Shown here in pieces: positions 8,534 through 54,921 of a stretch of DNA of 64,000 nt. The stretch is from Escherichia phage vB_EcoM_DE7. Location: sequence record OL825705.1, one strand, 5' to 3'. The first letter of the stretch is position 1. Each line of letters starts with the position of its first letter. Under the pieces are notes generated by a model, which was not told where the DNA came from, ran no database searches, and saw only the letters and a list, made by a program, of their open reading frames with translations. The position numbers and the translations under genes were made by a program.

Positions 8534-8768
8534 AGATAATCCTCTTGTCTTCTGTAATTTTGAAAGAACAGGTACAGACCAATTTCAGAGGATGAATAGT
8601 AGAGTGACTCTACCCTTTTTGATTCCTTACAGTGATTGGTATTTTTACCTTTCTTCGGGTTGTTTGATTTTCTCATTAAGTCTCCTTTGTAGAACAAGGC
8701 AGACCTACAGCTTTAAGTAAGATGGTACAGTAATCCATACAACAAGTCAAGAACTATTACAAGTTAAA

Positions 8769-8816
8769 AAAGTTGTTGACAAAGGACTTGACAAGGTGTA
8801 GGCTTATAAATACTTA
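8769..8816. promoter_or_regulatory. Divergent promoter region with tandem TTGACA element (GTTGACAAAGGACTTGACAAGGTGT)
   Basis: AT-rich upstream tract, two TTGACA hexamers 12 bp apart; near-identical element at 50052-50080. Confidence 0.45.
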
Positions 8817-8925
8817 GAAGATAACTTAAAAGGTTCCTCTAAAAAGGCTATTTAAACAGATATCTTTCTGGATATCTATCTTTTATCTTAAAAGCCTTTT
8901 AAGAGGTCTTATAAGAGGCATACCA

Positions 8926-9297
8926 ATGAAAAACAGAACAAACAAAGGCCAGTTTAAAAAAGGCCAGTCTGGAAACCCATCTGGAAGACCAAAAGGCTCT
9001 CGTAACAAAAGCTCTCTCGTAAAAGCTCAGCTGACCATTGATAATTCTGCTGAGTTTGCTGCAAAGTTGTTTGAGGCAATTGTTACAAGGGACGCTGCTA
9101 AGCTTGCAGAGTTCGGTTTGACGACTGACGATGTAAACCTGAAGTCAATGATGGAAGCTGGTAAAACTATCATGACCCACTCAGCAGGTGAGATGAAAGC
9201 AATTGCAGCAGACACTAAGAAGACCCCTGATAACGGTGGTCAGTCTCAGACAGATAACAAACCAACGTTCTCTGCTGTAGCGACTCTCAAAAAATAA
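8926..9297 (+). CDS. hypothetical basic protein with KGQSGNPSGRPKG motif (123 aa)
   Basis: ATG with AAGAGG RBS; Gly/Pro/basic N-terminal motif; function unknown. Confidence 0.5.
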   Translation: MKNRTNKGQFKKGQSGNPSGRPKGSRNKSSLVKAQLTIDNSAEFAAKLFEAIVTRDAAKLAEFGLTTDDVNLKSMMEAGKTIMTHSAGEMKAIAADTKKTPDNGGQSQTDNKPTFSAVATLKK

Positions 9298-9309: not shown

Positions 9310-9339
9310 TTGACAGACTCTACAAAGTTGCTCTAAAGT
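9310..9339 (+). promoter_or_regulatory. sigma70-like promoter (TTGACA-N18-TAAAGT)
   Basis: Hexamers with AAAAG upstream tract, before the vWA gene. Confidence 0.4.
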
Positions 9340-43030: not shown

Positions 43031-43360
43031 TTAATCTGCCAGCCTTAAATTAAAATTAACACCAAATTTTTCGCATACTTCCAACATATACTCAAGGGAG
43101 ACATTACCAGTGAGGTGGATTATGTTGGATACACGAGCCTGAGAGATACCACAAATTTTAGCAACTTGCTCTTGAGAAAGACCTCTGGATTTAATCTCTC
43201 TCTTAAAACGATGTGCAACGAAATCTCTCATTTCGTCTACATCCATTGGACAAATATAACTTTCCATTTCAGCCTCTCTGTCAGCCTCCCAATCATCTTG
43301 TGGAGCATAAGGGTCAAAAACCTCATTCATCTTTCTTCTTCCGTTTTCGTGAAGTGTCAA
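43031..43360 (-). CDS. helix-turn-helix DNA-binding protein (XRE-like); alternative start at 43330
   Basis: LSQEQVAKICGISQARVSNIIH helix-turn-helix signature. Confidence 0.55.
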   Translation of the reverse strand: MTLHENGRRKMNEVFDPYAPQDDWEADREAEMESYICPMDVDEMRDFVAHRFKREIKSRGLSQEQVAKICGISQARVSNIIHLTGNVSLEYMLEVCEKFGVNFNLRLAD

Positions 43361-45706: not shown

Positions 45707-45985
45707 ACCTTTTCCTTAAAATGATAAGTCAACACTGATACGTTCACCCTTAAGGACTCCTGTGCGGTCTCTTGCAATCTTACCGTCAACAATAAGGATA
45801 TGCGCAGACTTTAAAGATTCACTATTAAAACCTTTTACGAACTTACTAGGCATCACCACAATAAGCATCTCTTGAATCAACTATGGAGTATAGCAATTGT
45901 CGTGAAGTTGCTGAATAACGTCTGCAAGTGTCATATAACCTCCTATATAAGATATTGTATAAGGTACTCTTCCATGAGCACCTTG

Positions 45986-46501
45986 TCAAGATAGTTTTGC
46001 AAACTCTCCGTGGAGTTTCACAGCAGCTTCACAGTAAGCTTTATGGGCTTCTTCTTCTGTTGTGTACGTCCCGATATGTATAGTCTTACCATTATGGTTA
46101 ATCTGGGCTTTCCACTTACCAGACTTACTTCTACTTGTACCTTTTAAGTTTTTTGATGTTCTAGGTTGCCTCCTATTAGACATGTTCTGTTCTTTTGTGG
46201 CCTCTCTAAGATTGTCCCAAGCATTATTCAAACCGTTCCCGTCTTTGTGGTCAATATGATTGTCAGGCCACTTACCTGTCATCCAGAACCAAGCAATTCG
46301 GTGATTGCCTGTCCTGTATCCTAAAATCTGGGTTTGCATATACACACCAGACCTTGTGCGCTTGATTGTACCAGCCTGTCTTCCAATCACCACCCTACTG
46401 CTATGTGGAGGTCTGCCAATCCAAGTCAAGACCCCTGTTTCGGGGTCGTAGTCTAACCAAGATTTTAACTGTTCATGTGTGAATCCACAATCTCTCATCA
46501 A
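45986..46501 (-). CDS. free-standing HNH homing endonuclease with AP2-type DNA-binding domain
   Basis: HIDHKDGNGLNNAWDNL HNH core; C-terminal SKSGKWKAQINHNGKTIHIGTYTTEEEAHKAY AP2-like. Confidence 0.7.
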   Translation of the reverse strand: MMRDCGFTHEQLKSWLDYDPETGVLTWIGRPPHSSRVVIGRQAGTIKRTRSGVYMQTQILGYRTGNHRIAWFWMTGKWPDNHIDHKDGNGLNNAWDNLREATKEQNMSNRRQPRTSKNLKGTSRSKSGKWKAQINHNGKTIHIGTYTTEEEAHKAYCEAAVKLHGEFAKLS

Positions 46502-47856: not shown

Positions 47857-50032
47857 ACGCATAAATGCCATTTTTGCTCTTCTTACGACCTTTTGTAATC
47901 TCGTGAAGAAGTTCCTCATCCTGTGTCTCCCTGCAACGAACAATATCCTCTTCTTTGTTAAGACCAAAGTAAATACTGTTCAGTGTATGCGCATCAGTCC
48001 CTGTGTAGACTTCATAGAGGTCATTTTCAGCATCATAACGCAGATACTTGTCAGTTTCTGGGTTAAGATACTTGTCAAGATGTTTACAGTAGTATCTACC
48101 ATCATCTTGCTTAGTGAACTCTACTGACTCTTTACCCTCAGTTACCGCTTTAGTGAAGTCTTCATCACCCATAAAGTTACAAAGAAGAACTAGCTGGGCT
48201 GAGTTCTGGTCAACAGAAACAATGTTAGTCCCCTCTTCACAAATCCACACCTCCCTCATAGGTGCTCCATAGACAGCAGCGCCAGACGGTACGTTTACAA
48301 TACCATATTGAGTCATACGTCCAGTTGAAGTACCAAATACCATTGCACCAGCACTAAGGCGACCATCAGGACGAATCTGGTTCAACCAACCTTTTTCATC
48401 ATCCTTTGAGTTCTCAATAGTTCTGCGTCGGTGCATCAAAGTATAGTATTTAGCAATCTTCTGTCCAAGCTCACCTTCAATCGTATCATAAGATGATTCA
48501 GTAAGTTTTGGTGAAGTACGGATTAAACAAGGTTCAAGTAAATCTGTGTACTTCTTCACAGACCAGTTATGTTCAATGTACTGGACACCTTCATGTTCAA
48601 CATAACTCAAACCACACCGTTCCACCATCTCATCCCACTTAGGATGCTTTGTAATCATCTTTTTGTTGTCTTTGAAACGACAAACTTTGACAGGACGACC
48701 ATCTGAGTCTTTCTTATAGTTCCAGTCATCTGGAATCCAACCAACTGATTTCAAGTAGTCTTTAACAACCGCTACCTGAGTCATACGAGAAACTTCGAAC
48801 TCAATTGGTGTATATGGTGCATCAATCAAACCTGTGTAGCGACTTGACTCAAGCTCAAAGTGGTTAACAACATGACTGTTATAGTACTTCACAGTTTTTA
48901 CTGTTTTTACTGGCTTCCAGTCTTTGCATTTCTTACCAATCTTTGCATTCAACTCATTGCAAATTGCACGAGCATCCTTCATTGCTACAAAACCTTCCTT
49001 GTACTCTTCACCAGTTACAGAGTTGGTTGGTGTATAGCAATTCCGTTTTTCAATGTTAAAAATCTTTGTAGTTGGCTTACCAAATGGCTTGATTTCATAT
49101 GTCTGCATTTCACCGTTACGTACCTGCTGACGATACTTTGTCTTAGGGTACTTGGTAATTCTCTTCAGTCCATCTGCATGACCAAATGCTTCAACATACT
49201 CATTCCAAGCTTTTGCAAACTCTTCTCCAGTGACTTTACCTTTGGTTTTAATAGTCGGAGGTAGATGTGGTTCAACCTCTGAAGCAAGCTCATTAGTCAA
49301 CTTGTCAAGTTCCTTTACATGAAACTCCATAAGTTCTTTATCAGCTTTCCAACCATTGATAGCCTGTTGACTCATCCAGAAAGATGTTTCTTTAGCTCGC
49401 ATATAGGTTTCATAGGTGTCTACGCCACACTTCTTTAACTTCAGATATTCATTATCCAGTGCACGTTTAGTTTTGGCGTTAATACGGATATCCTCTACAA
49501 CACGAGTGAAGATTTCTGCATTCCACACACCCCAATGTTCAATCTCTGGTTTACGTACACCAACACGAGCACCCCATGCAGCCAAGCCATGAGCACCTTT
49601 GTAGCCCTTTGGAGTTGGTCTATCCATCCACTGAACACGAGACTGGATAAGAGAATCCTGAAAGAAATTACTCCACGGCTTACACTTTGGATTATCAAAG
49701 TTCCACAAATCAGGTGCAATGTGATTGAAAACCCACCAGTCATATCCCAGACCATTATGGATGCAAAGTCGTTTTGCCTTTAACGCAAACTCAACACCTT
49801 CACGCAAACCACCCTTGATGTACTTGGTATACTTGTGACCGAGGATAGGTTCATCTGTAAAGACCCATACAGGTGGCTCTTCATCGTCAGACTTATAGTC
49901 TGCGAAAGCCATTACGTGCACTTTAGTGAACTCAAGGAGTAAACCATCAGTTTCTGTATCACCAACTAAATGTAAGTTTTTAAAATCTACGTTTTCCATT
50001 TCTACTCCCTCTAAATCATTAACCTCATACAT
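47857..50032 (-). CDS. DNA polymerase (family A, T7-type), 5' exon
   Basis: Exonuclease motif VGDTETDG, motif A SVDQNSAQLVLL, start of motif B RKKSKNGIYA. Confidence 0.7.
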
Positions 50033-50051
50033 TACTGCAAAAAATTATAAA

Positions 50052-50080
50052 AAGCAAGTTGACAATGTACTTGACAAGGT
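50052..50080. promoter_or_regulatory. Divergent promoter region with tandem TTGACA element (GTTGACAATGTACTTGACAAGGTGT)
   Basis: Near-identical to the element at 8773-8800. Confidence 0.45.
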
Positions 50081-50255
50081 GTTAATCTTTGCGAAGTGGG
50101 TTTTTACTTAAAAGGTTACTTAACAGTTTAACTATACAGATACTTTAAAACTCTTAAAAGATTATTTAATAGCTTTTAAAAAGCTTTAAAGTATAACGTA
50201 TAGAATACGTTAAGATAAAAGATTAAAACTTAATAGTTACTTAAAAGAGGCTTAC

Positions 50256-50678
50256 ATGCAGAAAATGTTTGTTCACCCAGACATAGCTGACTTTGTTAGA
50301 GCTTTGCAGAAGTTGGAAGAACTTGACATTGCTGCTCAACGGGAATATGCTCACCATCACAGGAGAATGGTTGATATACAACATGAAATAGAGTTGTCTG
50401 AAAACTATGAAGATGACTTAAAATGCTCTGTATTTGAGCATATGAAAGATGTTGCTACAGCGAGACGTAAAGCTAAAGACACAGTTGCTTTACTAGATTC
50501 TCTTAAAAAGAAGTTGCAAAGTGGTACAGACCTGTGTAATCTAGCGTCACTGATTAATGATGTTGAAACTTCTTGGGATAGACATTACTATCCACGTTCT
50601 GAAAAGACACTTGACTTTTCTTCATCCGAAAACTTAAAATGCTCTAGAAAGAAACTTAACCAACTGAGAGAGAAATAA
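50256..50678 (+). CDS. hypothetical protein (140 aa)
   Basis: Intact ORF, first gene of rightward replication block. Confidence 0.5.
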   Translation: MQKMFVHPDIADFVRALQKLEELDIAAQREYAHHHRRMVDIQHEIELSENYEDDLKCSVFEHMKDVATARRKAKDTVALLDSLKKKLQSGTDLCNLASLINDVETSWDRHYYPRSEKTLDFSSSENLKCSRKKLNQLREK

Positions 50679-54892: not shown

Positions 54893-54921
54893 TTGACAAT
54901 AGAGTATCAACAAATTAGAAT
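54893..54921 (+). promoter_or_regulatory. sigma70-like promoter (TTGACA-N17-TAGAAT)
   Basis: Hexamers about 40 nt upstream of SSB gene. Confidence 0.45.

Follow-up and report, generated by a model that had tools for sequence, protein, structure and literature searches.

What does a second -35 hexamer do when it stands inside the spacer of a phage promoter? The question is raised by the 64,000-nt stretch of DNA analysed here (the window), in which two intergenic regions each carry two closely spaced copies of TTGACA on the same strand. The window comes from a Felix O1-like myovirus of the genus Felixounavirus, with 97-98% identity to Salmonella phage BPS17L1, E. coli phage P54 and around 250 other records, and it contains 24 tRNA genes at a G+C content of about 39%. 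Felix O1 has long been used as a typing and biocontrol phage. It encodes no RNA polymerase of its own, and its genome paper (Whichard et al. 2010, PMC3185647) took the start of early transcription to lie between genes 96 and 97; how transcription starts in this region, and how it is controlled in time, was given as unexplained. The same paper predicted only one promoter here, 'P41', with the form TTGACA(N15)TATAGG from the first hexamer of the gp40/gp41 region, and reported nothing else homologous in the 40-41 or 96-97 regions.

The two elements, referred to below as site A (TTGACAAAGGACTTGACAAGGTGT, 8776-8799, plus strand) and site B (TTGACAATGTACTTGACAAGGTGT, 50059-50082, plus strand), are 24-mers with the common layout TTGACA-N6-TTGACA-AGGTGT. 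They share CTTGACAAGGTGT, and a repeat unit TTGACAA-G-- runs head to tail through them. Site A is flanked by gp40 (minus strand, start near 8676) and gp41 (plus strand, 8926), and site B by the DNA polymerase gene gp96 (minus strand, start near 49999) and gp97 (plus strand, 50256); together they correspond exactly to the pair of divergent regions on the Felix O1 map (gp40/gp41 and gp96/gp97). The first-pass annotation had already placed the elements between divergently transcribed genes and behind an A-tract, and both statements are confirmed, the tracts lying at 8766-8771 and 50049-50053. The strings that it quoted are both present, but its ranges (8773-8800 and 50052-50080) were off by a few bases. 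The arrangement of an A-tract with TTGACA that it claimed for other promoters was recovered at 9310, 10813, 10904 and 12733, but not at 54893, where the A-tract is missing.

When up to three mismatches are allowed, the 24-nt pattern occurs in the window only at sites A and B, against 0.07 occurrences expected. Same-strand pairs of TTGACA at 11-13 bp number two against 0.107 expected, and two or more such pairs appeared in 4 of 1000 dinucleotide shuffles; TTGACA alone shows no excess (68 versus 64.5). The tandem-hexamer observation is real and non-random. The first hexamer of each pair (hexamer 1) stands in the following setting.

8766-8771, plus strand: A-tract of site A, at about -45 to -40, placed like the proximal subsite of an UP element (from sequence and conservation)
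8776-8781, plus strand: hexamer 1 of site A, TTGACA, putative -35 box for rightward transcription (Felix O1 'P41'), the same in all 19 distinct sequences
8799-8804, plus strand: putative -10 box of site A, TAGGCT, 17-nt spacer from hexamer 1, predicted start near 8811
50049-50053, plus strand: A-tract of site B, upstream of hexamer 1; AAAAAGCAAG is invariant in 20 distinct sequences
50059-50064, plus strand: hexamer 1 of site B, TTGACA, putative -35 box of a rightward promoter, invariant in 20 distinct sequences
50080-50088, plus strand: putative extended -10 of site B, TGt TAATCT, 18-nt spacer from hexamer 1, predicted start near 50095

These features were followed through the same intergenic regions of other Ounavirinae and of IMG/VR contigs reached through the gp41 and gp97 proteins. 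Altogether 19 distinct sequences were aligned for site A, representing Felixounavirus, Mooglevirus, Suspvirus and Hafnia phage Zyzzx, and 20 for site B. A TAnnnT sequence follows hexamer 1 in every relative compared, at 17 nt for site A and at 18 nt for site B. At site A it takes the forms TAGGCT, TAGCCT, TAAGTT, TAGTGT and TACTCT, and the fixation of T-12, A-11 and T-7 around three free inner bases is the pattern expected of a working -10 box. At site B it is TAATCT, or TAGTCT in the case of Mordin, and is preceded by TG at -15/-14. A run of four to six A at about -45 to -40 is kept in all relatives at both sites, and at site A the bases that flank it vary. In Kolesnikvirus (Erwinia phages) and Pectobacterium phage Arno162, site B is occupied by a single TTGACA followed after 17 nt by TACATT or TAGGCT, while Yersinia phage P778 carries a back-to-back TGTCAA-gac-TTGACA at site A. 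Three attributes of a sigma70 promoter, namely a perfect TTGACA, TAnnnT at 17 or 18 nt and a conserved A-tract, are present at both sites. Because of this TAnnnT, its -10-like conservation, the A-tract and the single-hexamer promoter found at the same place in distant genera, we read hexamer 1 as the -35 box of a rightward sigma70-type host promoter, and we regard this reading as very probable. To this extent the host-polymerase promoters suggested by the first-pass annotation stand, but not in the form of two overlapping promoters, which is weighed below.

In the scheme that we propose, host sigma70 RNA polymerase would read each element as a rightward promoter, with the A-tract before hexamer 1 acting like an UP element and with a weak -10, which would be TAGGCT after a 17-nt spacer at site A or TGtTAATCT after an 18-nt spacer at site B. 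The site A promoter would head the unit of gp41, gp42 and the tRNA genes, and the site B promoter that of gp97 and the genes for replication and nucleotide metabolism. We infer the starts near 8811 and 50095 as well as the early timing. RT-PCR on Felix O1 placed the peak of ORFs 41, 42, 96 and 97 at 25 min and not at 5 min, a maximum that neither supports nor excludes early firing. The literature searched yielded neither mapped transcript 5' ends nor a transcript map for any member of Felixounavirus or Ounavirinae, and a generic consensus promoter scan of the window had no power (18 sites versus 20 +/- 5 in shuffles).

GenBank record MZ726792 marks a 'promoter' at both sites, at site A from the second hexamer (N15, AATACT) and at site B from hexamer 1. 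At site A, 'P41' of Felix O1 and MZ726792 describe the same DNA, and they differ in the hexamer as well as in the -10 box chosen. A leftward reading of the elements, with TTGTCA as the -35 box or with a layout like a pho box in which TATAAT (50049-50044) or, at site A, TAACTT would be a -10 at ten nt, was rejected, as these -10 sequences are not kept in SUSP1, Mordin, SUSP2 and the Moogle phages. A different candidate for leftward transcription came from the consensus scan and lies in the gp40/gp41 region.

8722-8750, minus strand: candidate leftward promoter for gp40-gp24, TTGACT, 17 nt, TACCAT, fully conserved in Felixounavirus, Mooglevirus and Suspvirus

The second hexamer (hexamer 2) lies within the spacer of each rightward promoter.

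8788-8793, plus strand: hexamer 2 of site A, TTGACA, spacer positions -23 to -18, the same in all 19 distinct sequences
50071-50076, plus strand: hexamer 2 of site B, TTGACA, in the spacer, invariant in 20 distinct sequences
8809-8814, plus strand: alternative -10 of site A, AATACT, 15 nt past hexamer 2, a possible weak second promoter

All 12 hexamer positions are invariant across the 19 site A and 20 site B sequences. Between the hexamers of site A all six bases vary (aaggac, aagtac, aagcac, ttcctc, agcctc, agggga, aatgac), and the corresponding bases of site B vary as well (atgtac, atgcac, atacac, attcac, aaccac, aagcac). The four bases ahead of the C that leads into hexamer 2 of site B occur as tgta, tgca, taca, tgcg, ttca, acca and agca, and of the five bases past hexamer 2 most vary among relatives. 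With a gap of 5, 6 or 7 between the hexamers, the -10 still lies 17 nt from hexamer 1, and for this reason an independent site fits better than one half of a rigid two-part operator. The substitution pattern shows that hexamer 2 is kept by selection. A -10 box for it is difficult to find: at site B there is no TAnnnT 15-19 nt past hexamer 2 in the window or in any relative compared, and at site A the AATACT becomes AACACT at 16 nt in the Moogle and Susp phages and is absent from the Hafnia phage.

The two elements are very probably promoters with a selected second -35 hexamer in the spacer, a tandem arrangement that is unrecognised in both existing annotations; no description of tandem -35 hexamers was found in the literature searched. 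Most of the finding is ordinary, comprising host-type promoters at expected places, of which one had been published as a prediction and both carry a promoter label in a single database record. What stands out is the second, strictly conserved -35 box within the spacer, which recurs at a third promoter and in an unrelated lineage.

This third doubled promoter is found in Felix O1 at 11269, outside the window, and reads aaaaaagtgTTGACA-ataCCCC-TTGACA-ttgg-TAACTT, with a gap of N7 between the hexamers and a spacer of 17 from hexamer 1. It is kept in VpaE1 and in Mooglevirus Maleficent. All three doubled promoters match the -10 consensus at 3/6 positions, compared with 4-5/6 in single-hexamer promoters of the same phage, in what is a small sample. 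The tandem site at Felix O1 11269 is enclosed by CCCC...GGGG. The TTGACA promoter at 10813 of the window (followed by TAATAT) similarly lies within a hairpin with a 12-bp stem (10805-10836), which resembles a bidirectional terminator (Felix O1 t42/t43). A further single-hexamer candidate is related to the tandem sites in sequence.

45961-45990, minus strand: single-hexamer promoter candidate, 11-mer TTGACAAGGTG, then 17 nt and TACCTT; the third exact match to CTTGACAAGGTG in the window

The 11-mer TTGACAAGGTG is common to this candidate and to hexamer 2 of both tandem sites, and an ORF for an HNH/AP2-type endonuclease (45961-46501, minus strand) ends at or inside the candidate promoter.

A scan of IMG/VR with the exact 24-mer pattern returned Felix-like sites, one chance coding match and contigs of uncultured T4-like phages. 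The coding match, in an unrelated phage, encodes LDKALDKV within an ORF and was discarded. For the T4-like contigs, an environmental sample of 80 loci was assembled by gp55 protein similarity alone and reduced to 62 distinct upstream regions. Tandem hexamers precede gene 55 in 57 of these regions (50 with TTGACA-N6-TTGACA and 7 with TTGACA-N5-TTGACA), and the exceptions carry TTGCCA or TTAACA as hexamer 2, which are typical -35 variants. Hexamer 1 is always 17 nt from a good -10 (TATAGT, TAAAGT, TACATT and others). The element is very strongly conserved and is located between a small gene after uvsW and gene 55, which encodes the late sigma factor, at approximately 20-80 nt upstream of gene 55 and antisense to the flanking genes. 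Its -10 is flanked by an inverted repeat (tGTGA-TACATT-TCACg, or GAG...CTC), and an RTGT motif is found near the predicted start. Owing to the antisense orientation and the inverted repeat around the -10, other constraints may act on the environmental element.

The majority consensus of the environmental set, ataaaaagttgTTGACAaagggcTTGACA..., is so similar to Felix site A that BLAST against 50,697 cultured phage genomes found matches at Felixounavirus site A and essentially nowhere else. Felix-like phages infect enterobacteria, and Synechococcus or Pelagibacter are the hosts of those cultured phages that are most closely related to the environmental lineage. Cultured cyanophages have TGTCAA-N3-TTGACA at the uvsW/gene 55 place, and S-RSM4 has an antisense TTGACA-17-TAGAAT. 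On this comparative evidence, a second -35 hexamer that appears to be under selection is present in two unrelated phage lineages. Since the hosts of the two lineages are presumably very different, this argues for, though it does not prove, a reader common to bacteria, such as sigma region 4, in preference to a lineage-specific protein. A GGTGT / GTGTAG motif common to the Felix-like and environmental elements was dismissed as a coincidence, because its position relative to the -10 differs.

The layout was also searched more widely, as TTGACA-N6-TTGACA-N5-TAnnnT or with -TATAAT, in IMG/VR and in 185,579 bacterial genomes, with at least 120 matches each. A control in which hexamer 2 was moved by 3 bp gave at least 120 matches as well, from 64 families versus 62 among the matches listed. 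Given the millions of consensus promoters in the databases and the equal yield of the control, such database-wide counts are expected by chance and are not usable as enrichment; the evidence for conservation was restricted to comparison within lineages, and database matches serve as examples only. These examples include matches at a tRNA gene, an rRNA-leader-like sequence, rplU and a metal-transporter lipoprotein of Streptococcus sanguinis. An orthologous membrane protein gene in MAGs of gut alphaproteobacteria is preceded by three successive TTGACA hexamers, spaced at 13 and 12 bp, and then by TATTTT; the hexamers are kept and the intervening bases vary.

For hexamer 2 we propose the role of a second docking site for sigma region 4 rather than of a second promoter. 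It would help host polymerase to be captured by, or to stay longer on, these two promoters (three in Felix O1), whose -10 boxes are poor; alternatively, it would let sigma4 shift by 12 bp, or one helical turn, and thereby modulate firing. We know of no part of RNA polymerase that reads positions -23 to -18 while sigma4 occupies the -35 box, and the proposed role therefore requires alternative or successive binding modes. The joint reading, in which sites A and B are rightward sigma70 promoters with hexamer 2 as an auxiliary site for sigma region 4, has in our estimate about an even chance of being correct. A bolder version holds that the spacer TTGACA is a working second sigma4 dock and defines a 'double -35' promoter class, under selection in unrelated phages for out-competing host promoters for polymerase at the start of infection or for a shift of sigma4 over one helical turn by a phage factor, which would silence the promoter; this is put forward tentatively and is on the doubtful side. 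The closest precedent is the late promoter PR' of phage lambda, in which a -35-like element binds sigma4 during loading of the antiterminator Q, later than or separately from normal -35 recognition (PMC6606751). Both cases have a second hexamer for sigma region 4 embedded in a phage promoter (PMC6606751), with the binding of sigma4 proposed here by analogy. In lambda PR' the hexamer works jointly with a Q-binding element and with a pause element that resembles a -10 and lies in the initial transcribed region. A -10-like element of the PR' type is absent 17 nt past hexamer 2, where TACTTA (site A), AAGTGG (site B) and TGTAGC or GTTCCC (environmental set) are found.

Other explanations would give hexamer 2 a different reader or none. 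It may, as the first-pass annotation also suggested for the paired hexamers, be the operator of a phage regulator, alone or together with hexamer 1, that switches the promoters as infection proceeds, and the window encodes one candidate.

43031-43360, minus strand: gp85 homologue, XRE/Cro-type HTH protein, candidate regulator (Pfam HTH_3, E 5e-10)

The gp85 protein is an ordinary XRE-type HTH by comparison with PDB and Pfam, and Felix O1 ORF85 is annotated as a 'transcriptional regulator', in a virulent phage. An operator would agree with the conservation of hexamer 2 without a -10 of its own, with the 9-bp palindrome CTTGACAAG (CTTG-a-CAAG) at both sites and with the temporal control left unexplained by the Felix O1 authors (PMC3185647). 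The flanking C and AG of this palindrome, however, vary (ATTGACAAGA, CTTGACAACG, CTTGACATAC) while the hexamer is conserved, and a gap of 5-7 bp between the hexamers is a poor fit to a dimer on fixed half-sites. Homologues of gp85 were found in 260 phage records (Escherichia, Salmonella, Shigella and Citrobacter phages), all from the tandem-form genera Felixounavirus, Mooglevirus and Suspvirus; there are none in the single-hexamer Erwinia, Pectobacterium and Yersinia relatives or in Hafnia relatives. This co-occurrence is inseparable from phylogeny, and Hafnia phage Zyzzx has the tandem form yet no detectable gp85 homologue. The T4-like lineage has the same layout as well, and no gp85 homologue was found in the partial genomes examined. 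An operator is the main rival, yet we consider it unlikely, and gp85 was rejected as the binding protein, its one point of support being a phyletic correlation confounded by relatedness. The overlapping promoters of the first-pass annotation, each with its own TTGACA and -10 and with starts about 12 bp apart, find a candidate at site A, where MZ726792 annotates a promoter with AATACT 15 nt past hexamer 2 (AACACT at 16 nt in the Moogle and Susp phages), and some environmental examples have TAGCCT or TAGGAT 18 nt past hexamer 2. A 15-nt spacer is poor for sigma70, however, and the site A candidate is lost in the Hafnia phage, while hexamer 2 of site B has no TAnnnT-like partner at 15-19 nt in any relative. 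In the environmental set TAnnnT occurs at 16-19 nt in 12 of 109, which is no excess over the 6, 13, 13 and 27 seen at control offsets. The claim of overlapping promoters finds no general support and is considered unlikely.

A functionless hexamer 2 would be the relic of a 12-bp duplication of the -35 module that was copied between sites and persists through low divergence. This is compatible with the head-to-tail repeat, with the CTTGACAAGGTGT that sites A and B have in common and with the presence of TTGACAAGGTG at a third promoter, as well as with the tandem hexamers expected by chance at any offset from millions of consensus promoters in databases. Against it, neighbouring positions are saturated with changes and yet 12 of 12 hexamer positions are fixed across four genera, the feature is found at three separate promoters of one genome versus about 0.1 expected pairs, and it is conserved independently in 57 of the 62 sequences of an unrelated lineage. 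We find a mere relic quite improbable. The promoters might also serve as replication origins in the manner of T4 oriF/oriG, with an R-loop in the leader priming DNA synthesis. Site B adjoins the gene for DNA polymerase, phased repeats of the CTTAAAAG type run through both AT-rich leaders, and the environmental counterpart is located just downstream of uvsW, the gene for the T4 R-loop helicase; however, GC skew merely tracks gene orientation and both leaders resemble ordinary structured 5' UTRs, and we consider an origin very unlikely. We rank these last three explanations (overlapping promoters, a duplication without function, a promoter of the origin type) as less likely, and an auxiliary sigma region-4 site is the reading that we carry forward.

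When compared with described systems, sites A and B share with sigma70 promoters that have an UP element (rrnB P1, the T5/T7 early promoters) the A-tract, TTGACA, the 17-18-nt spacer, TAnnnT and the orientation towards genes. They differ from these in the second perfect TTGACA in the spacer and in the weak -10 (3/6). The sites of lambda CII and P22 C1 and the pho box likewise have direct repeats in the -35 region, spaced by roughly one turn of the helix. In the CII and C1 sites, TTGC-N6-TTGC straddles a poor -35 box with a fixed 10-bp period, whereas the -35 box here is consensus and the period is 11-13 bp, which sets the elements apart from a CII-type site. In the pho box, the place of the -35 box is taken by two copies of the 7-bp repeat CTGTCAT, with a period of 11 bp, 10 bp upstream of a -10 on the same strand. 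The reverse strand of our elements reads TTGTCAA-N5-TTGTCAA, which does not correspond to a pho box; a -10 placed ten nt from the reverse-strand repeats (TATAAT, TAACTT) is confined to the window, and SUSP1, Mordin and SUSP2 have lost it. Cassettes of the T4 PeSL type pair an early promoter with a stem-loop and are repeated between small ORFs. The TTGACA promoters inside stem-loops at Felix O1 11269 and at 10805-10836 of the window resemble these cassettes, but sites A and B lack an enclosing inverted repeat and are defined by the doubled hexamer.

With these results, each of the rightward transcription units is given a well-supported host-type promoter at its head. Should the second -35 box influence polymerase capture, promoter escape or shut-off, strong or switchable promoters could be designed by a simple rule that transfers easily, and the doubled box would become a handle on early gene control in Ounavirinae. 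If hexamer 2 does nothing measurable, the finding shrinks to two ordinary promoters.

Downstream of the predicted starts, each promoter is followed by a leader and the first gene of its unit.

8858-8877, plus strand: palindrome in the gp41 leader, AGATATC, 6 nt, GATATCT (from sequence; conserved)
8926-9297, plus strand: gp41 (DUF5681), the first gene after site A, followed by gp42, an RNA-binding-like protein, and the tRNA cluster
50195-50211, plus strand: palindrome in the gp97 leader, AACGTAT, aga, ATACGTT (conserved)
50256-50678, plus strand: gp97, the first gene after site B

The palindrome of the gp97 leader is changed on both arms in Mordin, where it reads TATGTAT, aac, ATACATA. The predicted leaders fold better than shuffled sequences, with z-scores of -2.9 for 8811-8925 and -2.3 for 50096-50240. 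No Rfam family reached its gathering score: the matches in 8650-8950 were chance ones below threshold, and 49980-50280 gave no match. The N-terminal basic stretch of gp41, GQSGNPSGRPKGS, resembles an AT-hook, and the gene precedes the tRNA-terminase block of a phage group in which, for Felix O1, a small terminase subunit has not been recognised.

An CTTAAAAG / CTTAAnAG motif was noted at 8825, 8887, 50107, 50119, 50153, 50229, 50240 and 54777, roughly in an 11-12 bp phase. It occurs in the leaders after both tandem promoters and in the syntenic leaders of the Hafnia, Erwinia, Pectobacterium and Yersinia relatives. Short motifs with a similar period are also concentrated at the left end of the window, where positions 1-1400 form a region of about 1.4 kb without ORFs that corresponds to the convergent gap between Felix O1 ORF23 and ORF24. 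Arrays of CTTAAAAG, CTTAACAAT, CTTGTTAG, TGTTAAG and TTGTTAGAGGGC with an 11-12-bp period account for 19 Tandem Repeats Finder rows in this region, and proteins might bind to them in packaging, at an origin or as regulators.
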